DNA of 64,000 nt from Clostridia bacterium (GTDB taxonomy: Bacteria > Bacillota > Clostridia > Christensenellales > CAG-1252). Below the pieces are notes generated by a model. It was not told the DNA's origin, searched no databases, and saw only the letters and a list, made by a program, of their open reading frames with translations. Both the position numbers and the translations under genes were made by a program. Each line of letters opens with the position of its first letter. Positions within the stretch are counted from its first letter, which is position 1. The stretch covers positions 20,421 to 84,420 of the forward strand of contig JAFPXC010000011.1 of NCBI GenBank assembly GCA_017394805.1, given 5' to 3'. Of the stretch, positions 2,365 to 21,609 are shown piece after piece.

Positions 2365-2379
2365 AATAATCTCCTATGG

Positions 2380-3021: not shown

Positions 3022-3022
3022 A

Positions 3023-6000
3023 CTACTTGATCACCACAAACGAAATCAACTCGAAGTCGTCTAATGCAAACATATTTTGCTGGAATAACACCTTGCTGCC
3101 AACCTTGAATAGCGACTGCAAATCGTTTTCCTCTTTCGCCGCAATGATGCTGGCAATGGCACCATCCAACAACTCGTTGTATTTCTCCATTCTTGCACCA
3201 TCTTTTGTCTCCCGATTGAATCGACGACACAAATCTGCAAGAGGCTCTGCATTGCCTTTGCAAGTAGCGCGTAGCACATCCAACACATACTTGACCTCAA
3301 GATGGTTATAAAGTATGGTGCCATCATCACGGATATACACCAGATAGAAGGGATGCAAGCGGTTTAGCTTGTTGATGTTGATACCATCATTGCGGTTGCA
3401 CAACACAAAAATGGTGCCCGGCTCAATGCCTTTGGACTCGTCGGCAGCGACTACTGCGTGTAGCCCTTTGGTGACACCTTTAGGATCACCAACCTCTTTG
3501 TGATATGCCACCAAGTCCATTACAAAGTCATTCAAACCCAAGTCCGTGATAGAGATATTGCCGTCAACGTCCTCGAGGTCTTGCAGGGTACCCTCTTGCA
3601 ACTTCTTAAGCTGCTCTTTGCGGTAATCCATTTCCTCCGCTTCTTCGGATATGATGTTGTCGTCGGCAGTAGCGGTAGCATTGACGATGGTCATACGAGC
3701 CGACACACGCTTGTTGAGGTTGATGTATTCGTCGAGCGTGATGTCCGGCCAGAAGTTGACCAACTGAATGCTCGTATTGACGCTTCCGATACGGTCAATA
3801 CGACCGAAACGTTGCACAATGCGCACGGGGTTCCAATGGATATCGTAGTTGATACAAATATCGCAGTCTTGCAGGTTTTGACCTTCGGAGATACAATCGG
3901 TACCTATGAGCACATCAATCTCATGTTTTTCGTCGGGATAGATGACCGCTTTTTGCTTGGATATTGGCGAGAAAAGCGTCAACAATCTATCCGTGTTTGG
4001 ACTACCGCCTATGTTGGTGCGGTTGTCGCCACCACCCGATACACGCGCCGTATATATGCCATACTTCGACAGCATATACTCGCTGATGTTTTGATAGAGA
4101 TAATCCGCAGTATCGGCGAAGGCAGAGAAAATCAACACTTTACGGTTGCCTTCATTGAACGGATGCGCCATCTTTTCTTCAATGAGTTGCTTCAATTCGC
4201 AGAGTTTATTATCATCTGCGGGCGTAACACGCAACATTTCGTGATATAGACGATATAGTATATCGGCGTCGTTTTGAATCTCACGGCGCCAAGTGGTAAC
4301 GTCAATGTCCGCCAACTTGATCTCGATAGTCTTGCCGGCAGCTATCTTCTCCAAAGAAAAGTCGTTGTCTTCGTCCGGATCAACGATGGCATATTCGGCA
4401 ACCTCTTTCTTGATGGATGCCGTTGTGTCGCCCGCCAAGAACCTATCAATGGTAGCCAACATCTCTTTATTGATGTCAAGCAATTTTTTGAGCGTGATGC
4501 GGAAGGCGTGAACACTGCTCTCCAAACGTTTCAAGAGCCCAATAGTCATCAACTTCTTCAATCCGCTTTCACGGTGCTTTTGACGCGTCAAGCCTTGTCC
4601 AAGAGCGTTGGCGTTGGGATTCTCTTTAGAAAGATCCACCTCGTACAACTCTTCGTACTCGTCTATACGCGAGGGGAACAGCATCGCCAACGGAGCATAA
4701 ACGCTCATGTTCATCTCCAGCAACAAGTCATAGATTTGTTTATAGGAGAGGATGGCTGGGTTATTCGTCAGCTTGGGGTACTTGGAAACGACAGGCAAAC
4801 GTGTGGGGAATTGCCCAATGTCGGCAGTGCTGTAATACTTCTGAATGTGTTTACGGCTACGTGCGATGGTTACGCTATCCAAGATGATTGAGAAGTCGAT
4901 GTCCAACTTATCAATAAGGTCTTTGGCATGGCGTTCCTCGATAGGCAACTTACTCCAAGCATTGAATACCTTTTGCGCTTGCTGGAAAACAACCTGCACG
5001 TCTTTGTCGGTACCAATCGTTTCGCTCATTTCTTCATAGTTGCCGCAGTATGCCAACAACAACTGATTCTTCAAATCGTTGTAACGGTTGTTGACAGGTG
5101 TGGCAGACAGCATCAAAACCTTTGTCTTAACGCCATCTTGCATGATGCGTTTCATCAAAAAGTCATAGCGCGTGTCCCTATCCTTGCGGGAGGCGTTATT
5201 GTTACGGAAATTGTGACTCTCGTCTATCACCACCAAGTCATAGTTGCCCCAGTTCACGGTAGCAAGGTCTATGCCGCCACTCTTGCCCGAAGTGCGTCCC
5301 AAATCAGTGTGGAATAGCACGTCAAAACGAATACGGTCTTTGTAGAAGATATTAACCTTGGTGTTGCCTTGATACTGCGTCCAGTTCTGCTCCAAGCGCT
5401 TAGGACAAAGCACCAAAATAGACTTGTTGCGCAAGGAATAGTATTGCATGACGGCAAGGGCGGTGAAGGTTTTGCCCAAGCCCACGCTGTCGGCAAGAAT
5501 GCAGCCGTTGTATTTCTCTAGCTTGTTGATGATGCCGACGGCACCATCCTTTTGGAAATTGTACAACTTGTTCCAAATAAGACTGTTCTTGAACCCCGTA
5601 GCCTCGTTGGGCATATAGTCGGAGTCGAGATCTTGCAAAAACTCACGGAAGATGTTGTACAGAATGATGTAGTAAATGAACTCCGGCGAGTTTTCTTTGT
5701 AGCAAGATGAAATGTAATCCACGATGGCAGCAGTGATGTCTTCCACATCATCGTCATTTTGCCAAAGTCGATCGAACTCCGTCAAAAAACTACGGCTATA
5801 ACTAGCGTCGTCGGTCTTAATGATTTGTACCAAGTGGCTACCGTTACTCTCATATCCCAACTCGGCGGTAGTAAAGCCTCCAATAGGCGTATATGTGGTG
5901 CTATGCTCGTGGTTGGTGATATTGACGGAGGTCTGCGTATAGCCCTCGCTCTTGATAGACTTGATTTGCACCTTGTTACGGATCCACTCGGCACATTCAC

Positions 6001-6325
6001 GCGCAATGGCTCTCTGCGTCATTTGGTTGCGCAACCGTATCTCGAAGTCCGTGCCACACAAGGAAGATTCGCTGAACTTAGGGATAAAGAATTCACGCTT
6101 TTCTTTTTTGATATTGTCGGTAATATGAGCATCTACGAAGGTCGGCGTAGTAAAAAGGAAACGCAATTCTTCAATGCCTTCCAACTCTTCACGCAAAGCC
6201 GCGTATGCGTATATGGAAAAACACGATGCCGCTATGCGTACCCTGTCTGCTCCCAGCAACTCCTTTTTGAGGTCGTCGCCCAACAATTTGCTCGTATTAT
6301 TGATGATATCAATCATTGCTTTCAT
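3023..6325 (-). CDS. SNF2-family (SF2) helicase-related protein, 1100 aa
   Basis: Motif I LADSVGLGKTFTALAV, motif II DLVVIDESHNFRN, motif III LMLSATPVNN, motifs V-VI LIGTDCISEGQNLQD...HWNPVRIVQRFGRIDRIGS. The N-terminal ~230 aa and C-terminal ~200 aa are unassigned. The start could be ATG 6325 or ATG 6316. Confidence 0.9.
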   Translation of the reverse strand: MKAMIDIINNTSKLLGDDLKKELLGADRVRIAASCFSIYAYAALREELEGIEELRFLFTTPTFVDAHITDNIKKEKREFFIPKFSESSLCGTDFEIRLRNQMTQRAIARECAEWIRNKVQIKSIKSEGYTQTSVNITNHEHSTTYTPIGGFTTAELGYESNGSHLVQIIKTDDASYSRSFLTEFDRLWQNDDDVEDITAAIVDYISSCYKENSPEFIYYIILYNIFREFLQDLDSDYMPNEATGFKNSLIWNKLYNFQKDGAVGIINKLEKYNGCILADSVGLGKTFTALAVMQYYSLRNKSILVLCPKRLEQNWTQYQGNTKVNIFYKDRIRFDVLFHTDLGRTSGKSGGIDLATVNWGNYDLVVIDESHNFRNNNASRKDRDTRYDFLMKRIMQDGVKTKVLMLSATPVNNRYNDLKNQLLLAYCGNYEEMSETIGTDKDVQVVFQQAQKVFNAWSKLPIEERHAKDLIDKLDIDFSIILDSVTIARSRKHIQKYYSTADIGQFPTRLPVVSKYPKLTNNPAILSYKQIYDLLLEMNMSVYAPLAMLFPSRIDEYEELYEVDLSKENPNANALGQGLTRQKHRESGLKKLMTIGLLKRLESSVHAFRITLKKLLDINKEMLATIDRFLAGDTTASIKKEVAEYAIVDPDEDNDFSLEKIAAGKTIEIKLADIDVTTWRREIQNDADILYRLYHEMLRVTPADDNKLCELKQLIEEKMAHPFNEGNRKVLIFSAFADTADYLYQNISEYMLSKYGIYTARVSGGGDNRTNIGGSPNTDRLLTLFSPISKQKAVIYPDEKHEIDVLIGTDCISEGQNLQDCDICINYDIHWNPVRIVQRFGRIDRIGSVNTSIQLVNFWPDITLDEYINLNKRVSARMTIVNATATADDNIISEEAEEMDYRKEQLKKLQEGTLQDLEDVDGNISITDLGLNDFVMDLVAYHKEVGDPKGVTKGLHAVVAADESKGIEPGTIFVLCNRNDGININKLNRLHPFYLVYIRDDGTILYNHLEVKYVLDVLRATCKGNAEPLADLCRRFNRETKDGARMEKYNELLDGAIASIIAAKEENDLQSLFKVGSKVLFQQNMFALDDFELISFVVIK

Positions 6326-6345
6326 CCTCGTGCGTATGTATTACG

Positions 6346-6374
6346 ATTATATCAAAAATCTTTGATATAGTCAA
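6346..6374 (-). promoter_or_regulatory. Sigma-70-type promoter of the helicase operon with an embedded palindrome
   Basis: The minus strand reads TTGACT (6374-6369), a 17-nt spacer, then TATAAT (6351-6346). The spacer and -10 contain ATATCAAA-N4-TTTGATAT (6349-6368), a perfect 8-bp dyad. Confidence 0.6.
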
Positions 6375-6439
6375 GAGCGCTTGGCAAGCATATATATCAC
6401 CATCAATATCAAAATGAGCGTAATCATAATGCTATCCTC

Positions 6440-6766
6440 TCAACATTGCACTGGCGGGAACATCGCAAAACTACGACCATCGGCAACATTCAACAGCGAC
6501 ACCCAACCTACCACGGGAGTTTGCTCACGCGTCTTGCCATTGATCAATATCGCATGGTTTTCTTCCGTGAAGTACACTGACACGTCTTCGAAGCATTGAC
6601 TCATAGCCAAAGCAAAAACTACCTTCATCTCCGTAAAAGGTTTATCGTCATACGGAGCCTCTGCGACTGTCGCGCACTGCAACCCTTTAGAAATCAAACG
6701 AATCTTTGCGGGCATTTTGTCATCGTCATACCATAAAATATCCATAATAACCTCCTCAATCATCAT
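6440..6766 (-). CDS. Hypothetical protein (108 aa)
   Basis: ORF only. It overlaps the upstream membrane ORF by 11 nt. No recognisable motif. Confidence 0.45.
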   Translation of the reverse strand: MMIEEVIMDILWYDDDKMPAKIRLISKGLQCATVAEAPYDDKPFTEMKVVFALAMSQCFEDVSVYFTEENHAILINGKTREQTPVVGWVSLLNVADGRSFAMFPPVQC

Positions 6767-7109
6767 CTATCATGTCCCAAAAGATAATTTCATCCATTGT
6801 AATTCCATCATCCTTTTGGCTTTGGTCATTAACTCTCTTTTTCTCTTCGGTTTTGCTGTTCTGCGAATGTTGAACTGCGAATGAAAGCATCCATATAAAT
6901 GCAAGGCAATGAGGAATGGCAACGAAGAGCACAGTCCAATGCTTTATAAAGAACATCGCGATCAAAGTTCCGAGCCACAAAACGCTACTAAAAAGCGTTA
7001 CAACAATTTCTGCGGGAGATGCTTTTTTCATTTCTTTGTCCTCCTTCACTATCATTTTAGCCAACACTGATAAGGAGGTCAATGTTGAGATGTCCCAAAA
7101 ATCGCCCAC
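6756..7109 (-). CDS. Hypothetical membrane protein (two hydrophobic helices)
   Basis: ORF with the hydrophobic segments IVVTLFSSVLWLGTLIAMFFI and VLFVAIPHCLAFIWMLSFAV. The start is uncertain because there are several in-frame Met codons. Confidence 0.45.
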   Translation of the reverse strand: MGDFWDISTLTSLSVLAKMIVKEDKEMKKASPAEIVVTLFSSVLWLGTLIAMFFIKHWTVLFVAIPHCLAFIWMLSFAVQHSQNSKTEEKKRVNDQSQKDDGITMDEIIFWDMIDDD

Positions 7110-7151
7110 CTTGCAAAGTTTTTCAAATCTTGTCTAACACTGTCTCACAGC

Positions 7152-7219
7152 GTTAGGCGTGCCTTGTCTTTGAAACAAGCACGCGCGCGACGCGCGCGTG
7201 AAGACAAGGCACGCCTAAC
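7152..7219. repeat. Nested perfect hairpin, candidate double-strand origin or recombination site
   Basis: The outer 19-bp stem is GTTAGGCGTGCCTTGTCTT (7152-7170) with AAGACAAGGCACGCCTAAC (7201-7219). The inner 10-bp GC stem is CACGCGCGCG (7180-7189) with CGCGCGCGTG (7191-7200). No T-run follows on either strand. It lies 140 nt from the Rep stop. Confidence 0.7.
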
Positions 7220-7360
7220 AACGAATCAACCAACGCCCAACCGAACCAATTACGCGCTTTCGACTGTCCGATGTGAGCGGCCGCAGGGGGCTCGCTAAAC
7301 CGCTACGCCACACCTGCTTGAACCGTCTCACACATTTCGGGCATTTCCCGAAAGGCGTCG

Positions 7361-8374
7361 TTAGTTGGATTTACGGAGTTGGGCGCGTGTTTCTTCGCTG
7401 TTTACGCCGACGTACACGCCTTCATCCCAACAGTCAAAATCCTCGAATAGTAGCAGTTTCTTGTCTTCCATTCCTGTCCGCATAATCACGTCTTTGTCCT
7501 CGATGTCGCTCATTACATACATGGGGAGTCCGCGACTGTACACAATCTTCTCTCCCGTCTTTTCGATGTACTTCAAGATATAGTCGATGGTTGAGCCCAG
7601 ATACATCGGGCCCTTCGTCGCCAACATATCAAACTCGTTGCGTCCGTACTTTTCATCGAAGAAGGTATTGTGGGTGTATTCCACCATGCGTCCACTCTTT
7701 TTGTTGTACTCCCGCGTGTCTTGTAGCATCCCTACCATTTGTCCTTCGGGCACATTCAATAGACAGTGAAAGTGCAGTCGTTCGGTCTCGCTTCCGCGTT
7801 CCCATACTCCCATATAAGTCCAGCCTCTCGCCGTATGGAAGTTTTGCAGCGTTCTCATAAGCCGCCACTTGAAAGTTACTTCATCCATCTTGGCGCTGTC
7901 GTATGTGAAGGTCGCAAAGTAATTGAAGTTGTTGAGGTGCGCCTTCCTCATAAACCGCTGTCGCTTGGCATTGAGCGCCTTGTTCTTTTCTTCCAACTTC
8001 TCCGACACATACTCCCACATCTTATTGTAGTGGGGAAACAGTTTCTTCATCTCGCTCAATATGTACTTGCGCCGGCGTTTCGGCGTCAAATCAAAACTCT
8101 CTCGATACAGCCTTTCAAACTCGGCTTTCTTCGTCGTATGGCGCTTGGTAGATTGAGATTCCGTAGAGGTTGTGTCCTCCACCGGCGTCTCCGTCTCGCA
8201 AGCATCGGTCGTTTCACTTTCAGCTTGCGTTGGTGCCGCCGTATGGTCGTCAACCTCTACTATCTCTTCTACCTCGGGGCGCCTATGCTTTGCGCTAGGG
8301 TTAGGTTCGTAAGGGATAGCGATATAATGGACGCCATCACAATACACCTTTGCATTGGGATACCATTTGCTCAT
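7361..8374 (-). CDS. Rolling-circle replication initiator (HUH endonuclease, two-tyrosine type)
   Basis: Motif 1 FATFTYD, motif 2 RLHFHCLLNV (HUH), motif 3 DYILKYIEK (YxxxY, as in phiX174-type Reps). I moved the start to ATG 8374, which has GGAGG 6 nt upstream. The 20 upstream codons in the track ORF have no RBS. Confidence 0.8.
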   Translation of the reverse strand: MSKWYPNAKVYCDGVHYIAIPYEPNPSAKHRRPEVEEIVEVDDHTAAPTQAESETTDACETETPVEDTTSTESQSTKRHTTKKAEFERLYRESFDLTPKRRRKYILSEMKKLFPHYNKMWEYVSEKLEEKNKALNAKRQRFMRKAHLNNFNYFATFTYDSAKMDEVTFKWRLMRTLQNFHTARGWTYMGVWERGSETERLHFHCLLNVPEGQMVGMLQDTREYNKKSGRMVEYTHNTFFDEKYGRNEFDMLATKGPMYLGSTIDYILKYIEKTGEKIVYSRGLPMYVMSDIEDKDVIMRTGMEDKKLLLFEDFDCWDEGVYVGVNSEETRAQLRKSN

Positions 8375-8420
8375 GTTCCACCTCCAAGATAGTTTATCCC
8401 GAGCGCGGATAGAGGCAGGG

Positions 8421-10547
8421 CTAGTCCTCGTCACTCGGATCGGAGTAAATGCCCTCTATGAAATAACTGTGTTGCTGATGCAACTCGTCAATGGTTGCCT
8501 TTGTCCCGGCGTATGACGGATAATCGTTCAATCCAACGTTTGTTTTCTTCGCCATTTCTGCAAAGAAGTCTCCAAATGCGTCGGTTGCAAAACGCTCTGC
8601 GTATATCTTTTGGTGCAACAAATAATACTTTTTTCTCTCGGGCTTGGAGTCCATTGTGCCGCGCTCTTTTTCGATGCTCAACGTGCTATACCCAAATCGG
8701 TTTTCTATGCGTTTTTTGTACTTGTACAGCCACGAAACGACGCTCTTCAAGAGGTAGACCAACAACGTGTTGTCGCCTCGTCTAAACCGCATTTTTTCGT
8801 ACAGTCGCCCGAAGCCGTTGTAAGACCAATCGCACAGCATATCTTCTAGCACGAAGAACGGTAGAGCCAACCCATTCGGGGATGTGTCCGTGATAGTGAT
8901 GACGTCGCAGAGGTCGCGTGCGTCGGCGCCCCAAGAGGCTGCGCGTTGCTCGTCGGCAAATACTTTGATGAAGGGGTAATTGTCTACGGTGGCACTATGG
9001 CGGCACATTTTCAACCAAAGGTTGAAGTCGTCGTTTTTCTGATTCGCCTTGTCGTCACCTTTCTTGATTTCTTTGAGTTCCAACATATTTCCGCGCTCCT
9101 TGCCAACTTCGCTGATCACGACGGTGCCAAACTCAAATGAACCAATATTCGGGTTGTCCTCTATCATCTTTTTCCCCAGGCGCAAGGTATCGAAATCGAG
9201 TATGTGAGCATACCGCGATTTGCGTAACCGACGCTTGGGGAAGAAGTTGTTGTACCACAACGGGAAGTTTCCCCCGTCTTGCAAAACAGAGTCCTCTCGT
9301 ATGGCGTAGTTGGATACAAGCAAAGAGGACTGTACCACATAGATGAAATACAGTTGTGCGTAGATCTCCAGCGCGTCGAATAAGGACAGCGTTTTGAGGT
9401 TGTTGTCGTAGCTCATGCCGTATCGCGCCGTGTCGTACCCATACAGTTGCTCAACGTTGTCTTGTCGCCTTCGGTATCGCTGCTCTTTCTTTCGCACCCA
9501 CTCCCTCGCCGTAGCCAAGTTGTAGACTGTATGGTACTCCATACACCGGCGCAACGCCATCTCAAAAGATATCCACGGGAAGAAGGGGAACATCATATCT
9601 ATCGCCACCAACCTTTGGTACGCTTCTTGCCGAAACATAACCGCTTGCGATAACGCCATGTCGGTGATCGCCGTTGTTTTGCGTTTTCCCATACTACCGC
9701 AGGTGAGCGTCACGATAGGCAATTCCTTGATAAAACCGCAATTCTTGGCTTCCATGTGTCGCAAACGTGCATCGGCGATACGCTCTCTCCAACGACAAAA
9801 CACCTTCCAGATATAAGGCAAAAAAAGGTACCATGGGAACCGTAGGAACAGCACTTGCAAGTCCATGATCAATTTGACCGCCTGCATATACAAGCCGCCC
9901 AACTGATACGAGGACGCGAAGTAGAAGTAGTACCCCAAAGCAGATAGCAATATCGCACCGAAGTTGAGGTTGAACGCCCAAATGATGATGTACAAATATA
10001 CCAGATTGGGGTGGTACGTTAGGTACTCTTTGTAGCCGATGGCAAACTGTTTGAACGGCTGATATACCGTGTTAGATAGTTTCTTGAACCGTTTGAGCGG
10101 GCGCGTGTCCTTGTTGTGCTTGGTGTTCGGCTTGCGGTACAGCATTATGATTGCCATTATGACGCCGGCGATAAGCGGGAAGCACATTATCAAGATTTTG
10201 GACGCTCTCTCCATCTTGGAGAGTTCGGCGAGTAGCCAACCCGTTGCATTCGTTTCATCTACCAAAAGCGTGCCGTACTGTTCGGTCTTCGTCTTGAATA
10301 GCGCCCAAGTTTCGGGCCAATTTATTAGCCATTCCATCACTTGGGACTTGTTACCGATGGTGACGTCTAAGTCTATAGGGCGGTGTAGAACGAAATATAG
10401 GTAGTGCTTCAAGCAACTCCAAAAGTCCACGGCAGATTCGGCGAGGCGCAGATAGGATTTGTAATAGACGCTTGCACCCAGCATGATCGCCACAGCAAAG
10501 AAGATAAAGGTTACTGCAATGTTCAATCGTCGCTGTCTTTTATCCAT
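8421..10547 (-). CDS. Membrane-anchored P-loop NTPase (708 aa)
   Basis: The N-terminal ~270 aa have four to five hydrophobic helices. Walker A is CGSMGKRKTT (aa 283-292) and a Walker B-like segment is TVVISEVGKE. I cannot assign a family by eye; Zot/pI-like or FtsK/TcpA-like are both possible. Confidence 0.75.
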   Translation of the reverse strand: MDKRQRRLNIAVTFIFFAVAIMLGASVYYKSYLRLAESAVDFWSCLKHYLYFVLHRPIDLDVTIGNKSQVMEWLINWPETWALFKTKTEQYGTLLVDETNATGWLLAELSKMERASKILIMCFPLIAGVIMAIIMLYRKPNTKHNKDTRPLKRFKKLSNTVYQPFKQFAIGYKEYLTYHPNLVYLYIIIWAFNLNFGAILLSALGYYFYFASSYQLGGLYMQAVKLIMDLQVLFLRFPWYLFLPYIWKVFCRWRERIADARLRHMEAKNCGFIKELPIVTLTCGSMGKRKTTAITDMALSQAVMFRQEAYQRLVAIDMMFPFFPWISFEMALRRCMEYHTVYNLATAREWVRKKEQRYRRRQDNVEQLYGYDTARYGMSYDNNLKTLSLFDALEIYAQLYFIYVVQSSLLVSNYAIREDSVLQDGGNFPLWYNNFFPKRRLRKSRYAHILDFDTLRLGKKMIEDNPNIGSFEFGTVVISEVGKERGNMLELKEIKKGDDKANQKNDDFNLWLKMCRHSATVDNYPFIKVFADEQRAASWGADARDLCDVITITDTSPNGLALPFFVLEDMLCDWSYNGFGRLYEKMRFRRGDNTLLVYLLKSVVSWLYKYKKRIENRFGYSTLSIEKERGTMDSKPERKKYYLLHQKIYAERFATDAFGDFFAEMAKKTNVGLNDYPSYAGTKATIDELHQQHSYFIEGIYSDPSDED

Positions 10548-10689
10548 AATACCCTCCCATAATTGCTCTTGCTATTTCGGTGGTATCGGTAATGGATGCT
10601 GCCTTCTTACCCGTATAAATGAGATAAGAAAGCAGTAGAGCCATTATCAATACGCCCAAAACAGCCAATGCTCGTTTCAGGCTTTTCAT
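10540..10689 (-). CDS. Small membrane protein (49 aa), absent from the ORF track
   Basis: Manual translation: MKSLKRALAVLGVLIMALLLSYLIYTGKKAASITDTTEIARAIMGGYYG. GGAGG lies 7 nt upstream of ATG 10689. Its end overlaps the NTPase ATG, which suggests translational coupling. Confidence 0.5.
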   Translation of the reverse strand: MKSLKRALAVLGVLIMALLLSYLIYTGKKAASITDTTEIARAIMGGYYG

Positions 10690-10700
10690 CGTGCTACCTC

Positions 10701-12392
10701 CTACAAGTCGCTGTCTCCGTCATCGAAGTAGCCCATTGCCGCCCAAGCGTCTGCCTCGGCTTGTTTCCATTCGGGATCGTGATTAAGGGCATATTCCTCG
10801 GCTTTCGTCAAGCGCACCGATTCTCGTTTGCCAGACCAAATGTCATTCTTCAGCTTCTCGACGTTGACACGCTTTGCTTGCCGTTCTATGCGCCGTCGCT
10901 CTCTTGCTTGCTGCCGCTCGATTTTTGCCAAACCTTTCTCGTTTGGACTTTTCGGCTCTCGCTTTTTGCAAGCTTTCACCGCGCCGCCCACAGCCTTGAA
11001 CGGCAAACTAACAAGCCACAAAACGAACTTGGCAATATAGGGTACAGCCGGCCACAGCACTATGAGCAATACCACCAAAAGCAAGATGGCAATGAGTGCC
11101 TTCCACCAACCACTCTCGGTGTTAATCTCGATGTCGAAGGTCGTCTCCGTAACAGGTTTATCCGAGCCCGTCTGCATATTATCGACGACGCCAAGATTGT
11201 ACACCGTACCGTTATGCCTAAACATAAGCCGCAAAATCGTGACGTTGCAAATGTTAGTACGCTCATAACTGACGGTAGTAGAGCCAACCATACTTGCGTT
11301 TTGGTACGGCGTCTCCACGAATTGCAAAACCCATTGTTTATCGGCTATGGCATTACGCCCTTCATCCGTTAGGCGTGTTTCCGTCGATACAGACCAAAAC
11401 CCTGCTTCATAGATGGATGATTGCTCGATGTTTGCCAAGAAGTCCGCCGTTGACGTGATTCGTTTCCACTCATAGTGTTGGCGCCCCGTGAACATACCTT
11501 TGGCATCGAAGGTACCATACTGGTCGTCGGTAAGCGTAACCACCGTAGGTGGTTGAGATTCGGGATCCGTCGGACGATACACGGTAGTGTACCCACCCAA
11601 GATGTAGTCAAAGAACCAATGCTCTTTTTCAAGCGTTACCTTTTGGGTAAAGTACTCAACGTCCGCTTCCAGCAAGTCGTCGATTTCGTGGTCGCAGGAA
11701 AACGCGACAAAGTGACTATCGCAGGCTGTCCCTATCATAAAGAACGGATCGTCTATGTACCGCACGAATCCTACAAACTTTTCGGTGATAAGCACTGTTT
11801 CGATGTCAATACAAGATACCGTATTGACGCCGTTCTCGGTACTAAACCGATACTGTTTGCTCACGCCGAAAGGTACTGCGTTGATTGTGTTGTCGTAGTC
11901 GGCTTGGGTGTCAACCTCCGACATAAACGGTCGCAAGAGTTGAATCACGGCATAGTAGCGCACCGGCTCTTTGGTTATGGTATAATCCTCGACCTTGTAC
12001 TTGTAGAAAACGCTCGAATGATTGATATACGTCAGGCGATAGTCTCTCGGCGCTATATCTTTGTCAATGGTTTCGGACAGCCGAATGTAATTCGCATAAT
12101 ACGTGCGTGCATATCCATAGGGTTGGTAAACATAAACAAACAGTTCGTCGTTTTTGCCTTCCGCTATGGTAATGAGTTGTAGCGAATAATCATTCTCGCG
12201 CTTCTCCCATTGGCTGATATTGAATGAGGCGTCAGTCTTGAGGTCGGTGAGCACATCGCTGTACTTGGTATCGGCTTTTGCCGTTGTGATGGGTACCAGA
12301 GTACCGAATGCTATGGCGCAAATGATAACCAAAACGGCTATAATTGCAACAAGTCGTTGGTACTGATACCCGATTGCAATATACTTTTTCAT
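10701..12392 (-). CDS. Secreted, C-terminally membrane-anchored protein (563 aa)
   Basis: An N-terminal hydrophobic segment is followed by AKA. Two C-terminal hydrophobic helices (WWKALIAILLLVVLLIVLW and IAKFVLWLVSLPF) are followed by a Lys/Arg/Glu-rich tail. AGGAGG RBS. Confidence 0.7.
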   Translation of the reverse strand: MKKYIAIGYQYQRLVAIIAVLVIICAIAFGTLVPITTAKADTKYSDVLTDLKTDASFNISQWEKRENDYSLQLITIAEGKNDELFVYVYQPYGYARTYYANYIRLSETIDKDIAPRDYRLTYINHSSVFYKYKVEDYTITKEPVRYYAVIQLLRPFMSEVDTQADYDNTINAVPFGVSKQYRFSTENGVNTVSCIDIETVLITEKFVGFVRYIDDPFFMIGTACDSHFVAFSCDHEIDDLLEADVEYFTQKVTLEKEHWFFDYILGGYTTVYRPTDPESQPPTVVTLTDDQYGTFDAKGMFTGRQHYEWKRITSTADFLANIEQSSIYEAGFWSVSTETRLTDEGRNAIADKQWVLQFVETPYQNASMVGSTTVSYERTNICNVTILRLMFRHNGTVYNLGVVDNMQTGSDKPVTETTFDIEINTESGWWKALIAILLLVVLLIVLWPAVPYIAKFVLWLVSLPFKAVGGAVKACKKREPKSPNEKGLAKIERQQARERRRIERQAKRVNVEKLKNDIWSGKRESVRLTKAEEYALNHDPEWKQAEADAWAAMGYFDDGDSDL

Positions 12393-12453
12393 AGCATACC
12401 TCCTAAAAGAAATTGGGGGCTACGGTCTCCCATAGCCCCCGTAGTTGGGTTGG

Positions 12454-13035
12454 TTAGAATACTACCGGATCGGGTTCGATGCGGAAGTTACCCCCCACAT
12501 CTATCCCGTGGAACGACACCTTGACTGCCGCCTTGTTGTTGTACGAGTACACCACCATCGTGAAGTAGTCGCGCATCTCTGCAAGGGTATTGACGATCTC
12601 CACGGTAGCGCCCTCATGGTAACGCTGCAAGACATTCAAGACTTGGGCGTTGCCGGCGATTGCGAAAGAATCGTTGCTGTACTGAATATCGAAACAAGAG
12701 GTTAGGTCGTTCAGCTCGCTAAAACGATGCTCTTCACCGTCTACCAAGTAAGTGAAATCATTGTCCTTGATGCACGGCACTACCTTAACGGAGTAACCCG
12801 TCTTCTCTTTGGCTACAGCACCAAAGGTGTATTTCACCTCAAATAGGTACACAGAATCGTCTACGAAGACCATGTCACTTGTGCTTTCAAGGATGTTTTC
12901 ACCCTCGTAGCGCAAATAGAACGTTTGGAAATCACTGGTGAAACCTGAGGTGAAATATGCTACCGCTCCGATACCGCCAACTACCGCTAGAACGAGCACC
13001 ACATAGATGATGACAGTCATAACATTGGTAGTCAT
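12454..13035 (-). CDS. Membrane-anchored hypothetical protein (193 aa)
   Basis: N-terminal helix VMTVIIYVVLVLAVVGGIGAVAYF. ATG 13035 has a GGGGG/GA-rich RBS. Confidence 0.6.
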   Translation of the reverse strand: MTTNVMTVIIYVVLVLAVVGGIGAVAYFTSGFTSDFQTFYLRYEGENILESTSDMVFVDDSVYLFEVKYTFGAVAKEKTGYSVKVVPCIKDNDFTYLVDGEEHRFSELNDLTSCFDIQYSNDSFAIAGNAQVLNVLQRYHEGATVEIVNTLAEMRDYFTMVVYSYNNKAAVKVSFHGIDVGGNFRIEPDPVVF

Positions 13036-13052
13036 ACGACATCACCCCCTTG

Positions 13053-14084
13053 TTAGAAGGTAATCGTGTTGCTACCGCTGATGGCTACGCTGGCGACTTG
13101 CTCTTCCAAGAAGCACTTGAAGGTTGCCGAGAAGTTGTAGTTGGTTTGCTTAACCGTGATGATGACGTAAGGCTTGTTACCATCTGCGTCGGTGTTGACC
13201 GAATAAACCTTGTTCGTCCAAGTAGTCGTTTCACCGAGACCCTCGGGATGCGAAGTATTGGACGATTCAAAATAGCCATAAATAGACTTGTTTACGGTAA
13301 TTTTGAGTGTTGCCCCCGTGGTGGTACAAGAAACCATTTGATTGGCGATAGAACTCAACTCCACAGTGTTGTCGTGGGTACTCCAACCGGCACCACGACC
13401 AGACTTCGTATAATTGCCCAACGTGACAGTGCCGACGCCCGTAACCGTAATGGTGAAGTTGTTGTAGTCACTACCCACATCATTGAAGATATTGGTCATG
13501 TTGATGGGAACGGAATAGGTTTGCCCAACATACAACGAGGGAACGGACATGGAACCCAAATTGTAGGTGGCGGCACCCGACGCACTACCCAAAGTCATAT
13601 CAGAGGGCACACCGTTATAGGTGATGGTAGCAGTGCAGGTCTTGTTGTTTTGACGAGTCGTACAGGTCAAAATAATGTTGCTGCCACGGAACGCCTTAAA
13701 GCACTTCAAAGTACAAGTGGTAGAGCCATCTTGAACGATTTGGATGTAGTCGGATACGTTCTTGGACGACAACGCGGCACCCGAAGCCCAAGCGACAGAC
13801 CAAGTCACATACTTGTCTTGCACGGAATCGGGCGTGATGACTGCGATAACCGATTGCTGGGTATAGCCACTGCCCGAATCGCCACCCGACAAATAGATAG
13901 GTGCGGTCACTTCCAGCGATACGGCTTCCAGCTCGGTGAGTTGCGTGATAGTAAGCATGTCGCCCGGCGCCACGGACTCATTCATTTGCTTGGTGGACTC
14001 ACAGCCCACGAAACACAACGAAACCGAGCAGGCGACAATGACGAGAATCGTCACGATACTGATGATACTGATTGTTCTTTTCAT
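13053..14084 (-). CDS. Predicted lipoprotein, Thr/Ser/Asn-rich beta-type ectodomain (343 aa)
   Basis: Signal peptide plus lipobox-like SLCFVGC. The rest is rich in T, S, N and V with repeated beta-strand-like segments. AGGAGG RBS. Confidence 0.65.
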   Translation of the reverse strand: MKRTISIISIVTILVIVACSVSLCFVGCESTKQMNESVAPGDMLTITQLTELEAVSLEVTAPIYLSGGDSGSGYTQQSVIAVITPDSVQDKYVTWSVAWASGAALSSKNVSDYIQIVQDGSTTCTLKCFKAFRGSNIILTCTTRQNNKTCTATITYNGVPSDMTLGSASGAATYNLGSMSVPSLYVGQTYSVPINMTNIFNDVGSDYNNFTITVTGVGTVTLGNYTKSGRGAGWSTHDNTVELSSIANQMVSCTTTGATLKITVNKSIYGYFESSNTSHPEGLGETTTWTNKVYSVNTDADGNKPYVIITVKQTNYNFSATFKCFLEEQVASVAISGSNTITF

Positions 14085-14101
14085 TATTTACCTCCTTTTT
14101 A

Positions 14102-14986
14102 TTACCATTCGCCGTCTTCCTCGACCATGGACTCACCCGAGCCGGTGGGACCTTCCTCGGTGCCCTCTACGACATACGAGAATTCACAAGTGAACTCGCC
14201 GTAATAGGCAACACCCATATAGTCACCGGGGGTTGATGTATCGACATCAATAGAATCGGGGATAGCGAAGTCATACGAGTCATCCGAGTACACAAGCATA
14301 ATGCTGTTGCTTTCAGGGATGGCTTCGTCGCCCACCTGATAAGTGGGAACGTTTTGTTGATGAATACTGACGATGTACTTCTCTTGCGGTTCGGGCTCAG
14401 GCTCGGGCTCGGGTTGCACTTCGAGTTGCACACCACAAGAGTCGCAGTGGCCGTCGCCATTGACGTCACGGTGCTCAATATGCTTGTGGCAATACTTGCA
14501 ATCGCCGTAGGCGTCTAGGTCATGCCCGTTGAGGCAAGCCGAATTGGTGTTGATGACAAGCATACCGCACTTGCGACATTGGAAGGTGTCAGGATCTACA
14601 TCGTGGTCGGTGTAACCGCATTTGGTACATACGCAACCATCGAATTCGTGCTCGCATTCGGCACGGATTTCGTCAAGTGATTTGCCACAACCTTGACAAA
14701 CGCCGTTGAATCCGTACTTGTGCGTACACTGACCGCAGTCTTGACACATACCGTTCTCGTCAATGTTTGCGTGTTCGCAAGGCGTAGCGTCCTCGGGTTG
14801 CTTGTCTTTCCTGAACGCATCTCCAACTTTGTCCGTCAAGCCTTGCACACTCTCTTTGAGAGAGTTCAGTTGCTGCTTGACACCTTCCTTGTCAAAGTTG
14901 GTGAAGCCGTCCGAGAAGAACCCGATGGCACCCACTATGCCGAATGCGACCATGCAAACGACAATGATAATGACTAAGATTTTCAT
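14102..14986 (-). CDS. Membrane-anchored Cys-rich protein with a PE-repeat linker (294 aa)
   Basis: It has an N-terminal transmembrane helix. At least six CxxC pairs are present: CQDCGQC, CQGCG, CTKCG, CRKCG, CKYCH and CDSCG. A PEPEPEPEP linker follows, then a C-terminal domain. AGGAGG RBS. Confidence 0.65.
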   Translation of the reverse strand: MKILVIIIVVCMVAFGIVGAIGFFSDGFTNFDKEGVKQQLNSLKESVQGLTDKVGDAFRKDKQPEDATPCEHANIDENGMCQDCGQCTHKYGFNGVCQGCGKSLDEIRAECEHEFDGCVCTKCGYTDHDVDPDTFQCRKCGMLVINTNSACLNGHDLDAYGDCKYCHKHIEHRDVNGDGHCDSCGVQLEVQPEPEPEPEPQEKYIVSIHQQNVPTYQVGDEAIPESNSIMLVYSDDSYDFAIPDSIDVDTSTPGDYMGVAYYGEFTCEFSYVVEGTEEGPTGSGESMVEEDGEW

Positions 14987-15049
14987 AGAGCCTCCTTTTG
15001 GGAATCGCAGCCCAGGTTAGTGGGCTGCTTCCCGTTAGATTTTGCGATG

Positions 15050-15403
15050 CTATTTCAACAGCATCTTCAAGAGGTCTTTGTCGCAGTCCTTGTAGGGCTT
15101 GACCTTGACCTCGTACACTTCGCCGTCCTCGTCGATCGTGCGGATGGCGTAGGAGTTACCGGAGATGGTGTTGCCATTCTCACCCTGCACTTCGAAGGGG
15201 GTGATCACCAACTCGGCGCTCTGGGCGTCGCCGAACACGATGTCCAACACTTCGAAAGCCTTTTTGGATTTCTCCTTCGGCGCTAACTGAATCTTGATAT
15301 CGCGGCCGCGCAAGGTGGCACGCACGAAGTATTGGTAGTAGTTGTTTCCTTTGAAGTCGAACATTTCGCGCTCGACGATGTTACTCACACTGTTTTTTGC
15401 CAT
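15050..15403 (-). CDS. Hypothetical 117-aa protein (possible OB-fold or ssDNA-binding role; weak)
   Basis: ORF with an AAGGAGGG RBS. It is soluble, beta-rich and small, and it is the second gene of the module. The functional guess rests on position and size only. Confidence 0.55.
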   Translation of the reverse strand: MAKNSVSNIVEREMFDFKGNNYYQYFVRATLRGRDIKIQLAPKEKSKKAFEVLDIVFGDAQSAELVITPFEVQGENGNTISGNSYAIRTIDEDGEVYEVKVKPYKDCDKDLLKMLLK

Positions 15404-15429
15404 GATTTTTCAACCCTCCTTGATATTGA

Positions 15430-15750
15430 TTATTTGTTGTCGGCATTCTTGCCTTTACCCTTGACGGGTTTGCCGGCGGCTTCGGCAGCTGCGGCTGCTT
15501 TCTCGGCTTGGGCGGCAGCCTCTTGTGCTTCCTGCTCGCGCTTTTGCTTCAGCCATTGGAAAAAGTGGTACATGCCCACGTGATCGTGATTGGCCTCGAG
15601 ATAACCGGCGCGAACGCCTTTTTCGTACTCGGTGAGGTCTTGACCTGCCTTGTCGCCTTCGAGATGCTTGCCTTTCTTCTTCTCGGCGTACATCTGTTCC
15701 CCAGCCTTGTGGGGATTCTTCCAACGGTTCCTGTAATTGTATCTACCCAT
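15430..15750 (-). CDS. Basic, Ala/Lys-tailed 106-aa protein
   Basis: I moved the start to ATG 15750 (MGRYNYRNRW...), which has AAGGAG 8 nt upstream. The track ORF extends 87 codons further across repeat c1 (see findings). Confidence 0.6.
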   Translation of the reverse strand: MGRYNYRNRWKNPHKAGEQMYAEKKKGKHLEGDKAGQDLTEYEKGVRAGYLEANHDHVGMYHFFQWLKQKREQEAQEAAAQAEKAAAAAEAAGKPVKGKGKNADNK

Positions 15751-15929
15751 AGTAGTCTCCTTTGCCCGTAACCAGATAGCACAGTGATTTGAGTTGATGC
15801 CCGTAAGTGCCGTTAGCAAAGCGTGATGGTATGATATTAAGTTGTAGAGTTGTGCCGTCTGAAACTGATACGACGTTCCGTCATGGGCGATTGGGGAGTG
15901 GCCACTCTTACCTTGCAAGCCGCAATCGA

Positions 15930-16080
15930 GAAAGGGGCGTTTCGTCAAGCACATCTTCAGTTTAGACCTTGGAAGTGTAAAAACGCCATAGACTGAATGG
16001 GTGGGAATCATACCCGATTAACACAGTTTTTGAATGGCGAAAAACCAAATTGAACGTAGTGGAATGCACTAGCACTTCAC
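15930..16080 (-). repeat. Repeat copy c1 (the family is c1, c2, c3)
   Basis: It shares an 18-mer TGTAAAAACGCCATAGAC (15976-15993) and a 12-mer AATCATACCCGA (16006-16017) with c2. It shares a 20-mer GCCATAGACTGAATGGGTGG (15985-16004) with the reverse complement of c3. The distal box CACTAGCACTTCA (16067-16079) matches c2 at 18662-18674. Confidence 0.8.
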
Positions 16081-16250: not shown

Positions 16251-16355
16251 AAGGAAATGATGCACTTCCTTCCTCGATAGAGGAGAACCGCCCACTGCGG
16301 GGCTGATGGCGTCTACACGATTGGCGATTGCCAAAAGTGTTGGCGTCGTTTTTTT
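16251..16355 (+). promoter_or_regulatory. 5' leader with alternative pairings and an intrinsic terminator (attenuator or candidate riboswitch)
   Basis: Hairpins AAGGAA/TTCCTT (16251-16271) and CCTC-GATA-GAGG (16272-16283). GCCAA (16330-16334) can pair either with the upstream TTGGC (16321-16325) or with the downstream TTGGC (16340-16344). The downstream pairing extends to about 9 bp and is followed by TTTTTTT (16349-16355). Confidence 0.5.
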
Positions 16356-16368
16356 ATGGAGGTGTGTT

Positions 16369-17568
16369 ATGATGTTGTTATCGTTCGGCTTGATACTATT
16401 GGTCGGGTTTGTCGTGGGGTGGCTGCTCAACAAGATACGTGTACCGGGCTTGGTGGGCATGATCGTGGTCGGACTGGTTTTTGGACCCTATTGCCTCAAT
16501 ATCATTGATTCTTCTATCTTGGATATTTCGTCGGAGTTGCGCCAAATTGCTTTGGTGATTATTCTCACGCGTTCGGGGTTAAATCTCGACCTTAAAAAAT
16601 TGCTGTCCGTAGGCACCCCCGCCTTGCTGATGAGCTTTATTCCCGCCACCTTTGAGATGGTGGGCACCATGCTCGGCGCACACTATTTGCTAAACCTTAC
16701 GTGGGTTGAAAGCCTGTTGCTCGGTGCCGTGTTGGGTGCCGTGTCACCCGCTGTCGTTTCCCCGCGCATGATCAAACTCATTGAGGAAAAACGCGGTGCC
16801 GAGCACGCCGTTCCCTCTATCGTATTGGCGGGGGCATCGGTCGATGACATATATACAATCACGTTGTTTTACGCCTTCCTCGGTATCGTTCAAAACCACA
16901 AAGCCGACGCGTTGTCCATTGCCCTTGTGCCCGTTTCTATCTTACTTGGCATAGCATTGGGTATTGTGGTAGGTGTGTGCCTCTTGTTTCTCTTCCGCAA
17001 AACGCATCTGCCACTCGCCGCCAAAATGCTTATTCTTTTATCCGTTTCCCTATTGATGGTAGGGCTGGAAACCCTAGTCAAACCGTGGATAGATATATCC
17101 TCTCTACTGGGCGTGATGGTAGTGGGTATGATCCTCGCTTTCAAACATAAAGATACGGCGGAGGAGTTATCCAACGGATATAAGTCGCTGTGGACGTTTT
17201 TCGAGGTGTTATTGTTTGTGTTGATGGGTGCAGCCGTGGATTTTCGGCTTATCACATCGGTTGGTTGGCAAGCGGTGGTCGTCTTACTCATTGGTTTGTC
17301 TTTCCGCACCGTCGGCGTAATCGTGTGTATGCTGTTTGCCAAAGCCACTTGGCGAGAGCGTTTTTTTGCCGTATTCGCCTATTTGCCCAAGGCAACAGTG
17401 CAAGCCTCAATAGGGGGTATTGCGCTGTCTCTCGGATTAGACTGTGGCAGTGTGATATTACTTGTCTCGGTATTGGCTATCGTAGTCACGGCACCTATCG
17501 GCGCTTTTTTAATCGACTTCTTTGGAAAGCGGTGGCTTGTGCCTATACAAGAAACACCAGATAAATAA
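16369..17568 (+). CDS. Cation:proton antiporter (Na+/H+ exchanger family)
   Basis: 399 aa, polytopic, with about 11-12 hydrophobic helices. The N-terminus LLVGFVVGWLLNKIRVPGLVGMIVVGLVFGP is typical of CPA-type exchangers. I moved the start to ATG 16369 (GGAGG 6 nt upstream) because the track start at 16306 lies inside the leader terminator. Confidence 0.8.
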   Translation: MMLLSFGLILLVGFVVGWLLNKIRVPGLVGMIVVGLVFGPYCLNIIDSSILDISSELRQIALVIILTRSGLNLDLKKLLSVGTPALLMSFIPATFEMVGTMLGAHYLLNLTWVESLLLGAVLGAVSPAVVSPRMIKLIEEKRGAEHAVPSIVLAGASVDDIYTITLFYAFLGIVQNHKADALSIALVPVSILLGIALGIVVGVCLLFLFRKTHLPLAAKMLILLSVSLLMVGLETLVKPWIDISSLLGVMVVGMILAFKHKDTAEELSNGYKSLWTFFEVLLFVLMGAAVDFRLITSVGWQAVVVLLIGLSFRTVGVIVCMLFAKATWRERFFAVFAYLPKATVQASIGGIALSLGLDCGSVILLVSVLAIVVTAPIGAFLIDFFGKRWLVPIQETPDK

Positions 17569-17631: not shown

Positions 17632-17892
17632 TTACGCTACATATTCACGCGTTTGCATTACGGTGTGAACCCGTCGGCCGTCTTTACGTCGGCGATCTGC
17701 AAACATGGAATTGTAGAACTTGTCGCGTTTCGTGGTACGTGCGAAGAACACATCTCGGCTAACCACCATCGGCGTTGTGTCGTCGTCATACATAATCTCA
17801 ATGTACTGACAGACGATAAAATGCTTGGTGCGATATATGTTATTCGGTGCGTCTTTGTCGTAGTCCAACTCGCTCAAATCTACGCTTACCAT
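17632..17892 (-). CDS. Hypothetical protein (86 aa)
   Basis: ORF 12 nt downstream of the regulator-like gene. No motif. Confidence 0.5.
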   Translation of the reverse strand: MVSVDLSELDYDKDAPNNIYRTKHFIVCQYIEIMYDDDTTPMVVSRDVFFARTTKRDKFYNSMFADRRRKDGRRVHTVMQTREYVA

Positions 17893-17904
17893 AGGCTACC
17901 TCCT

Positions 17905-18213
17905 TTATACATTGTTGTCTTCACTGTGATCGGACAAGTATTGGCATAACTGTTGACAAAACTTGGAAATGCAACTTGTCGAAACACAAAACCGGTCAGC
18001 GAGTACCTCTTGGCTCTGGTCGGTCAAATAGTACTCATAGTAGATATGCAACAATCTCAACGGCGCGTTTTTCATCAACGCATCATAATACGCTTTCAAT
18101 AACTTCAATCTCTCACTGCGCACATCATCATTATGCGCATCAAAAACATCTCGATAGGAATGGTAATACTTGATTTCCATCAACTCATCTCTAACTTGCT
18201 TTTTACTCTTCAT
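17905..18213 (-). CDS. Sigma region-4-like / DUF1492-like phage transcriptional regulator (102 aa)
   Basis: The C-terminal segment SQEVLADRFCVSTSCISKFCQQL resembles a sigma-70 region 4.2 helix-turn-helix. The Tyr-rich N-terminal helix region resembles small phage late regulators. This is from memory only. Confidence 0.5.
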   Translation of the reverse strand: MKSKKQVRDELMEIKYYHSYRDVFDAHNDDVRSERLKLLKAYYDALMKNAPLRLLHIYYEYYLTDQSQEVLADRFCVSTSCISKFCQQLCQYLSDHSEDNNV

Positions 18214-21011: not shown

Positions 21012-21059
21012 GCCGATGCCATAGCTCGTGTCATGTCTGCTTGATGCTATATCCTCCTT

Positions 21060-21539: not shown

Positions 21540-21609
21540 AGTGCTTGCGTTTACTAGCAAATGCTAGCAAATCATAGTACAACCATATCGCTACACGAAC
21601 CGCTTGAAA

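Follow-up and report, generated by a model that had tools for sequence, protein, structure and literature searches.

What kind of mobile element is encoded by a compact block of nine minus-strand open reading frames (ORFs) at positions 7361-15750 of a 64,000-nt stretch of a Clostridia bacterium genome (contig JAFPXC010000011.1; this whole stretch is referred to as the window), in which a rolling-circle initiator lies beside a large membrane nucleoside triphosphatase (NTPase) and a series of membrane-anchored proteins? A sequence-only reading of this module had proposed inovirus-like or pleolipovirus/plasmavirus-like particles and, as the main alternative, a conjugative element resembling the actinomycete integrative and conjugative elements (AICEs). 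The analysis reported here leads us, with moderate confidence, to regard the module as the core that serves replication and morphogenesis in a temperate, non-tailed element of the inovirus-like (Zot/pI) lineage. On this reading, the element integrates by means of a serine recombinase, exceeds 31 kb as a result of cargo uptake and would presumably form particles.

All nine ORFs are present as the sequence-only reading had described them, co-directional and tightly spaced, and the predicted membrane topologies agreed with it as well. In transcription order, and all on the minus strand, they encode a basic soluble protein of 106 aa with 21 K+R and a conserved GYLxxxxDHxG core (p106, 15430-15750); a soluble, beta-rich protein of 117 aa (p117, 15050-15403); an acidic protein of 294 aa with an N-terminal anchor and 19 Cys (p294, 14102-14986); a 343-aa lipoprotein or N-anchored protein with an FVGC lipobox-like signal and a Big_2-like Ig motif (p343, 13053-14084); an extracytoplasmic protein of 193 aa with an N-terminal anchor (p193, 12454-13035); a type I membrane protein with signal peptide, large ectodomain, C-terminal transmembrane segment and charged tail (p563, 10701-12392); a single-pass membrane protein of 49 aa (p49, 10540-10689); the 708-aa NTPase, with an N-terminal helical membrane domain and a P-loop (8421-10547); and an HUH/YxxxY rolling-circle initiator, Rep (7361-8374 from an ATG or 7361-8434 from a GTG; 337 or 357 aa). 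The genes overlap or are separated by at most 65 nt, gaps that leave no room for hidden small ORFs between them. Of the nine starts, eight are preceded by ribosome-binding sites of the GGAG/GGAGG type; that of the NTPase, lying within the end of p49, has GGGAGGG, and this overlap suggests translational coupling of p49 and the NTPase. Rep is the only protein of the module with a match to a curated family, the other eight having no significant match in Pfam, NCBIfam or PHROGs, and megablast of the module against phages gave no match.

The neighbourhood of the NTPase was compared at 90 fetched loci carrying a related NTPase. On the same strand and in a fixed order, it was accompanied by Rep in 88 of them, by p117, p106 and p193 in 60 each, by p563 in 57 and by p343 in 56, the latter often duplicated (one to three copies per relative). 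Because seven of the nine genes thus recur together in 56-88 loci with their order kept, their co-occurrence is not a matter of chance. The two genes outside this count are p294, a lineage-specific insert found in only 2 of the 90 loci and therefore not part of the conserved core, and p49, for which BLAST is not sensitive enough; by clustering, the position of p49 is occupied in 28 loci by a conserved family of 43-50 aa. Two further conserved genes, p86 (46 loci) and p102 (37 loci), lie upstream of p106. The nine genes singled out by the sequence-only reading therefore stand as a conserved core, not as the element itself, which also includes p86 and p102, carries p294 in few lineages and extends over more than 31 kb. 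One divergent arrangement was observed on the IMG/VR contig IMGVR_UViG_3300045988_156661 (L106, 9675-13744), where p106, p117 and a homologue of the lipoprotein are present but NTPase and Rep are missing, and where an antisense ArdA gene follows at a distance of no more than ~2 kb; the copy has apparently decayed or recombined.

The sequence-only reading had also suggested a survey of related genomes, and this showed that the NTPase is widespread. Its relatives form more than 2,900 clusters at 90% identity, none of which has a Pfam domain; among representatives at 50% identity there are 862, of which 487 reach E <=1e-30, with lengths nearly always of 700-750 aa. At least 358 matches were obtained among the 185,579 species-representative genomes of GTDB, and the NTPase was present on at least 421 metagenome contigs. 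The carriers are almost entirely gut Clostridia (Christensenellales, Oscillospirales and some Lachnospirales), some genomes having two or three copies. No prior description of the module was found in literature searches.

An indication of where these proteins belong came from the surface proteins, whose homologues were found in small circular genomes encoding Zot: Bajarodino virus 12 (PQ006185.1), a circular genome of 9,828 bp filed under Inoviridae in GenBank; a 13.5-kb IMG/VR contig (IMGVR_UViG_3300045988_183308, here L108), which is circular, since it has a 55-bp terminal repeat; and a 9.8-kb Zot-encoding contig (L111). In tblastn, p563 was 31% identical (aa 2-473, E 1e-54) to a protein of 541 aa encoded by Bajarodino virus 12, and the hidden Markov model (HMM) of its family matched both this virus (E 9e-92) and a 453-aa protein of L108 (E 7e-129). 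The HMM of a variant family, p681, recognised Bajarodino virus 12 (E 2.4e-4) and L111 (E 9e-20), that of the p343 family a 344-aa protein of Bajarodino virus 12 (E 1e-30) and L111 (E 6.6e-63), and that of the p193 family a 191-aa protein of L111 (E 1e-24). The order of genes in Bajarodino virus 12 (p343-like, p563-like, small ORF, ATPase) is that of the window, and in L108 and L111 the homologues likewise lie upstream of a Zot-type ATPase. The HMMs of the Rep, p106, p117, p49, p102 and p86 families found no match in any of the three genomes. This pattern indicates that the structural and assembly block is shared, while the block for replication and regulation is different. It may be added that in Bajarodino virus 12 (L110) a segment of ~1.5 kb (1980-3531) contains no annotated gene or convincing ORF, and that a recognisable HUH Rep was not found anywhere in that genome.

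A Big_2-like motif is common to the p343 and p193 families, which also end in the same strand, ...LDKxxIxF; the C-terminal end of the window p193, ...RIEPDPVVF, corresponds to it. Profiles of p117, p563 and p343 gave nothing useful against the PDB, and p117 had no Pfam match. From its position and topology, p563 may be a pIII-like adsorption or terminal protein, and p117, which has a median identity of 47% across 60 loci, is from its size and position only a candidate gpV-like protein binding single-stranded DNA (ssDNA).

The NTPase proved more difficult to place. It consists of a polytopic helical membrane domain of ~255 aa at the N-terminus and an ATPase domain of ~450 aa, with the P-loop GSMGKRKTT (family consensus GxMGxGKTT), and sequence and profile searches against PDB, Pfam, NCBIfam and PHROGs gave either nothing or only generic AAA matches. 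A first AlphaFold2 (AF2) model, of the full-length protein with 36 close homologues, had a poor ATPase domain (predicted local distance difference test, pLDDT, 57.6), and its fold search was meaningless, while a second model of the C-terminal 454 residues, built with 134 diverse homologues, reached a pLDDT of 95.5. In a Foldseek search of the PDB with the C-terminal model, no neighbour was found below E 0.1, the best local ones being the STIV2 B204 packaging NTPase, Vps4 and HerA. All Foldseek matches (ASCE, packaging ATPases, Zot) were weak. In BFVD, the top of the list consisted of proteins without a name, a Zot of Inoviridae (probability 0.66) and packaging ATPases of the A32 type; the best match, A0A894JLK1, is nameless in the tables.

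The link to Zot was reached by way of p563. Scanning IMG/VR with the p563 profile led to L108, which carries, along with the p563 homologue, a 315-aa NTPase whose match in Bajarodino virus 12 is the annotated Zot protein (E 9e-10). A profile of Bajarodino-like Zot proteins was built from 47 sequences, nearly all pre-annotated as PF05707, and compared with the NTPase family by hhalign. The full ATPase domain gave a probability of 58-68%, which rose to 96.3% (E 1.9e-9) when a large insertion, located between helix α1 and the Walker B strand, was removed. In the controls, the reversed profile gave 0.2% and 20 column shuffles at most 0.9%, and two accepted Zot subfamilies compared with each other in the same set-up gave only 8%. 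Walker A and the signature M.RH...D.QR(P)....R(D/E)LC are colinear in the two families; the Walker B strands (VVISEV and IFLSEV) were paired by eye. Against Orf8 of Propionibacterium phage B5 and a B5-like Zot profile, hhalign aligned Walker A only, and against B5 Orf9 it gave a negligible match elsewhere. We conclude from these alignments that the NTPase is a strongly derived pI/Zot-type ATPase, which carries a polytopic membrane domain at its N-terminus as well as the large insertion.

It should be noted that pI is the only universal marker of inoviruses (PMC6813254), and that the hhalign result amounts to a remote homology with a bona fide Zot subfamily. The other genes of the module are either shared with inoviruses, as are p563, p343 and p193, or orphans. 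Because the three surface proteins and the ATPase are all related to proteins of Zot-encoding genomes, the inovirus-like reading rests on homology and not on resemblance alone; of the proposals made by the sequence-only reading, it is the one that gained support, from these homologies, from the gene order and the Zot signature, and from Rep and its hairpin described below. With the Bajarodino-type genomes the module thus has in common p563-, p343- and p193-like proteins, an ATPase with Walker A and M.RH...D.QR...R(D/E)LC, and a temperate lifestyle (integrase, repressor). The differences are equally evident: those genomes are circles of 9.8-13.5 kb from gut samples, at least three times smaller, with tyrosine integrases and a soluble Zot of 266-315 aa recognised by PF05707, whereas the ATPase here has 708 aa with a fused membrane domain and an insertion; and they are devoid of the PF23343 Rep and of the p106, p117, p49, p102 and p86 families.

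The topology of the surface proteins could also fit a pleomorphic, vesicle-type virus of the pleolipovirus or plasmavirus L2 kind, in which p563 would form the spikes, p343 and p193 would reside in the membrane and the NTPase would correspond to VP8. The candidate structural proteins are indeed all large and membrane-anchored, with no small helical coat protein among them; p563 resembles VP4 of the pleolipovirus HRPV-1 in its spike-like topology, having a signal peptide and an anchor at the C-terminus; and the order spike, small ORF, ..., NTPase recalls that virus. Comparison of the NTPase itself, however, gave no relationship, since hhalign aligned HRPV-1 VP8 at Walker A only (probability 0.4%) and L2 ORF1 negligibly and elsewhere in the protein (0.06%). 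No named pleolipovirus or plasmavirus protein appeared among the BFVD matches, the relatives that could be identified are Zot-encoding genomes, and we know of no precedent for budding through a Clostridial cell wall. This part of the sequence-only reading is therefore not sustained, and we consider a vesicle-type virus very improbable.

For the inovirus-like reading, the replication block provides a second line of evidence. Rep scored 32.5 bits against PF23343 (REP_ORF2-G2P; cut-off 27.8) and has the motifs FATFTY, HFHCLL (HUH) and YILKYIEK (YxxxY), so that its earlier assignment as a phiX174-type HUH protein was confirmed. The better start of the gene is the ATG at 8374, giving 337 aa, because the ribosome-binding site belongs to this codon and not to the GTG at 8434. 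Weak tblastn matches connect Rep with the VP4/Rep proteins of Microviridae. On the same strand, 100-150 nt past the Rep stop, lies an origin-like cruciform (7152-7219, minus strand) with a perfect outer stem of 19 bp, an inner GC hairpin and the unpaired loop GCTTGTTTCA. A perfect stem of at least 12 bp was found at this spot in 54 of 72 distinct loci, nearly always with the same structure, and in an alignment of 35 sequences compensatory changes were present in 17 of the 24 predicted pairs, while the loop motif CTTG-T.T was invariant. The form CTTG-TAT that was seen resembles the phiX174 origin, AACTTG^ATATTAAT, whose annotated position was checked; this phiX-like loop is consistent with the weak similarity of Rep to microvirus initiators. 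We take the cruciform to be a candidate double-strand origin (dso) for Rep, with a putative nick position and strand. Motifs I-III, two tyrosines and a cognate origin-like hairpin, as expected of an initiator of HUH superfamily I, are all in place. The resemblance to phiX174 gpA and Microviridae VP4 covers the HUH and YxxxY motifs, the weak sequence similarity and the loop; unlike in phiX174 and Microviridae, the module has its origin in a conserved cruciform outside the rep gene and is not accompanied by microvirus capsid genes.

A further question is whether the module is still active, as it might instead be a defective or domesticated remnant that no longer exports DNA and is kept for a function of the host or the element (remodelling of the surface, for example, or exclusion, or maintaining the island in a plasmid-like manner). 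The nearly constant integrated state, the lack of circular contigs and the copy on L106 with neither NTPase nor Rep would fit this explanation. Against it speak the core genes, which are all intact and have strong ribosome-binding sites, and the manner in which they diverge: the ATPase is the most conserved (median identity 52%) and the exposed surface proteins the least (30-35%), and the hairpin has accumulated compensatory changes. In addition, several copies occur per genome, identical proteins are found on up to 44 contigs, and a 17-kb block occurs in three contexts with 93-95% identity. This conservation, the compensatory changes and the spread in several copies and several contexts point to recent mobility under purifying selection, and a remnant appears to us a very improbable explanation.

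We therefore return to the inovirus-like element and to its extent. The GC content is 47-50% from position 1 to ~23000 and 56-60% beyond. The operon head, past a Na+/H+ exchanger gene, is formed by the small conserved genes p86 and p102 (17632-18213, minus strand). The latter has weak NCBIfam similarity to sigma-70 region 4/YlxM-type helix-turn-helix proteins, and in relatives both are flanked by sigma70_r4, HTH_11 and LexA-like S24 genes; they are probable regulators. The exchanger (16306-17568, plus strand; PF00999, E 7e-45), which lies between these regulators and p106, was found in only one related locus and may be a moron or cargo gene.

Two serine recombinase genes (19060-21011, plus strand) encode a 134-aa resolvase-domain protein and a large protein of 515 aa; the domains recognised were Resolvase, Recombinase and Zn_ribbon_recom. 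This pair, situated near the right-hand limit of the low-GC island, is the predicted integration module. The sequence-only reading had foreseen integration by a serine recombinase, and the recombinases are indeed part of the element, but its view that this lies outside the usual routes of inoviruses does not hold, since such integration has already been recorded for them (Roux 2019, PMC6813254). Just past the recombinases and near the GC shift, lies a perfect inverted repeat of 17 nt (21808-21936) with another hairpin (21842-21899) inside its 95-nt spacer; it may represent an att region or else a terminator.

On the other side of the module, past Rep and the origin, cargo genes occupy positions 424-7109 (minus strand): two small ORFs, one of them for a membrane protein, a SNF2 helicase, DUF4391 and an N6/N4 methylase. 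The last three form the part of a defence cassette that lies within the window (424-6325, minus strand), the SNF2-family helicase having 1100 aa. On a contig from another sample (L198, 11941-15966), the cassette extends past what the window contains with DUF2971, ResIII-RE_endonuc and a Zn-ribbon protein, and is followed by an antisense PcfJ/PcfK operon. Since the cassette runs on beyond the window and the operon lies outside it, the element must exceed 31 kb.

The same plan is found in the relatives, in which the module ends in Rep and is followed by a cargo hotspot and then by an antisense operon with PcfJ (31 loci), PcfK-MutS_I (26), ArdA (8), DUF7659 and DUF6809. The hotspot between the Rep origin and the PcfJ operon is occupied in L091 by eight large ORFs, and members of the P0399 lineage have there a radical-SAM gene or a gene for a protein of 2178 aa. 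Regulation in the relatives involves a LexA-like S24 or cI-like repressor, sometimes with UmuC/YolD, then HTH_11, a Zn-ribbon protein and sigma70_r4. A large serine recombinase was found ~10 kb upstream in 17-18 loci and a tyrosine integrase in 8 (one adjoining a tRNA-Arg), while some relatives show no recombinase. In the widespread L095 lineage, in which one identical NTPase occurs on 44 contigs, UmuC (IMS) and YolD come after a LexA-like repressor, with a Mob_Pre relaxase and a TnpX-like serine recombinase (DUF4368) downstream (620-2827 and 19215-21918); the Mob_Pre/TnpX-like part could be a nested Tn4451-like mobilisable unit.

A version of 17.1 kb is common to three genomes with 93-95% identity and different flanks (L015 463-17854, L025 2053-19487, L027 2129-19212). 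In an attempt to define att sites, its breakpoints proved clean and without repeats, and no recombinase gene was found in the block. Its right end has a conserved sequence of ~75 bp, also present in L001, L003, L022 and L035. A tRNA-like 3' fragment considered at the block end was not confirmed by ARAGORN and was discarded.

The antisense operon brings in the second major alternative, namely contact-dependent transfer by an element resembling integrative and conjugative elements (ICEs) or AICEs but with novel machinery, which would descend from a filamentous phage without being one any more. Rep would then be the relaxase and the hairpin an oriT, the NTPase would pump the Rep-bound strand through a channel of its own, p563, p343 and p193 would be mating adhesins or channel parts, and the PcfJ/PcfK/ArdA genes a leading region. 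The NTPase gene lies directly upstream of Rep with tight spacing in all lineages examined, as in coupling-protein/relaxase pairs, and the genes for such pairs are adjacent in Tn916 and ICEBs1. The PcfJ, PcfK-MutS_I and ArdA genes lie downstream of the origin on the opposite strand; as their orientation is towards it, the strand in the Rep sense would serve as template for them. A comparable gene orientation is known from plasmid leading regions (PMC11541004). The LexA-like and UmuC/YolD cassettes of the relatives, and the large, cargo-rich and nearly always integrated elements, also suit this explanation.

The machinery of conjugation, however, was missing. FtsK/SpoIIIE, VirD4, VirB4, VirB6/8 and cell-wall hydrolase families were not found in the module or its flanks; no FtsK/VirD4-type match was obtained for the window NTPase, 66 members of its family or the recurrent neighbours, and Foldseek gave no translocase-like fold. 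Relaxase and mating-channel genes were absent from the 45 most recurrent neighbour clusters, Mob_Pre being restricted to the single lineage in which it lies beside a TnpX-like recombinase, and no copy of the module was present among 72,556 plasmids. For the three surface proteins and the ATPase, the only relatives that could be identified are those of small circular genomes encoding Zot, and anti-restriction genes would be equally useful to an ssDNA phage. The comparison with AICEs of the pSAM2 type and with Tn916/ICEBs1 leads to the same point: the integrated state, the rolling-circle initiator beside a membrane NTPase gene, the ArdA/PcfJ/PcfK-type genes and SOS-type control are shared, while the module is without the FtsK/SpoIIIE-type (TraB/TcpA/ConQ) domain, the Rep_trans relaxase and the VirB4/VirB6/VirB8 or hydrolase genes. 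The conjugative alternative of the sequence-only reading, with neither the FtsK/SpoIIIE fold or family nor VirB4 or type IV secretion partners in sight, has thus lost ground, and we regard it as unlikely, although less so than a vesicle-type virus or a remnant.

Tailed phages need little discussion. As the sequence-only reading had noticed for the module, capsid, portal, terminase and tail families are missing, and they were not found within ±10 kb of the 90 related loci either. The sole GenBank 'phage' record that contains the module is MT835493.1 (L091, 'UNVERIFIED: Bacteriophage sp.'). It is a chromosomal fragment and not a virion genome: the element and a tyrosine integrase are flanked in it by tRNA-Arg and by the host genes for NrdD and thioredoxin reductase. 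The possibility that the module is part of a tailed prophage was considered and rejected, as this record has a host flank and no tailed-phage genes near the module.

Several observations weigh against an inovirus-like element. The homology with Zot is narrow, being confined to ~45 aligned columns and Walker A, and curated Zot models do not detect it: PF05707 matched neither the window NTPase nor the 66 family members even at E <=10. No classical major coat protein (acidic N-terminus, transmembrane segment, basic C-terminus) was recognised in the module. Only p49 fits the size of 30-90 aa with a single transmembrane domain, and its charge layout is the opposite, with a basic N-terminus and a neutral C-terminus. 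With 17 to >31 kb and with ArdA/PcfJ/PcfK genes typical of conjugative elements, the elements are unlike the small genome (~5-20 kb) seen as a circular episome by which inoviruses are recognised under Roux-type criteria; the smallest conserved block has 17.1 kb, and neither terminal repeats nor a circular form were found in ~170 contigs carrying the module NTPase, whereas homologues of true B5-type pI are mostly on contigs of 5-8 kb. Virus collections hardly contain the module, with only four IMG/VR contigs carrying its genes and a single GenBank 'phage' record that includes host housekeeping genes. Finally, the Bajarodino-type genomes have themselves been classified from sequence only, and no virion data on them were found.

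How, then, does the module compare with well-known filamentous phages? Like Ff (M13/fd) and the inoviruses of Gram-positive hosts (Propionibacterium phage B5, Enterocloster), it combines an HUH Rep and origin hairpin, small putative DNA-binding proteins and membrane-inserted structural proteins, and it encodes first a pIII-like protein that has a signal peptide and is anchored at its C-terminus, then a small membrane protein and then a pI-type ATPase, analogous to the order Orf6, Orf7, Orf8 of B5. As already recognised by the sequence-only reading, gene order and NTPase topology are not those of classical Ff phages, Rep being last instead of first and the membrane domain of the pI-type protein N-terminal instead of C-terminal. 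The size of 17 to >31 kb, against 5-9 kb, and the lack of a recognisable small helical major coat protein are further differences. Infection by inoviruses is chronic and non-lytic. For gut Clostridia this has been shown with pI-positive prophages of Enterocloster, which are secreted as filaments (PMC10061712) and provide an experimental precedent for the inovirus-like reading.

If the inovirus-like reading is correct, the element could have the following cycle. The regulatory head (p102/p86 and, in relatives, a LexA-like S24 repressor, HTH_11 and a sigma-like protein) would turn on the long operon, and the recombinase would excise the element as a circle. Rep would nick the hairpin loop at or near CTTG^T, on the strand presumed above, and drive rolling-circle synthesis of single strands, which p117 and p106, to judge by size and position, might coat. 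The membrane-embedded Zot-type ATPase and the coupled p49 would then thread the DNA across the membrane, while the anchored p343, p193 and p563, the last as the pIII-like protein, would be collected during export. In the recipient, the antisense PcfJ/PcfK operon (with ArdA in relatives) would help the incoming DNA to become established. A more far-reaching idea, which we put forward tentatively and consider rather doubtful, is that these elements are a large, uncatalogued branch of filamentous-phage-like elements of gut Clostridia, in which an inovirus-derived export system (a 700-aa ATPase with its own channel, and large Ig-domain membrane proteins in place of a small helical coat) is combined with an antisense leading region of the conjugative style, whose anti-restriction and establishment genes would have the exported Rep-sense strand as template, possibly as an intermediate between ssDNA phages and conjugation. 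If export machine and leading region are so combined, 17 to >31 kb of DNA, including defence systems, could move as ssDNA.

The lineage is very common in gut Clostridia, is not recognised by curated protein libraries and is almost never found in virus catalogues. What is new here, and supported by the data, is a large and common variant of Zot-lineage prophage with a membrane-fused ATPase, Ig-domain membrane proteins, a phiX-type Rep with an origin cruciform, and establishment genes of the conjugation style. If this is true, a mobile element that ranks among the commoner ones in gut Clostridia escapes the present detectors of viruses and ICEs, and the known range of inovirus-like elements would be widened in genome size, pI architecture and coat composition. 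The 700-aa ATPase would serve as a marker, and the origin hairpin as a cis element, for finding such elements. Their mode of spread matters for gene flow in the gut, because they carry restriction-modification or defence cargo, transporters and, in relatives, resistance genes. In evolutionary terms, the presence of phage-type export together with conjugation-type establishment genes would bear on the relationship between ssDNA phages and conjugative systems.

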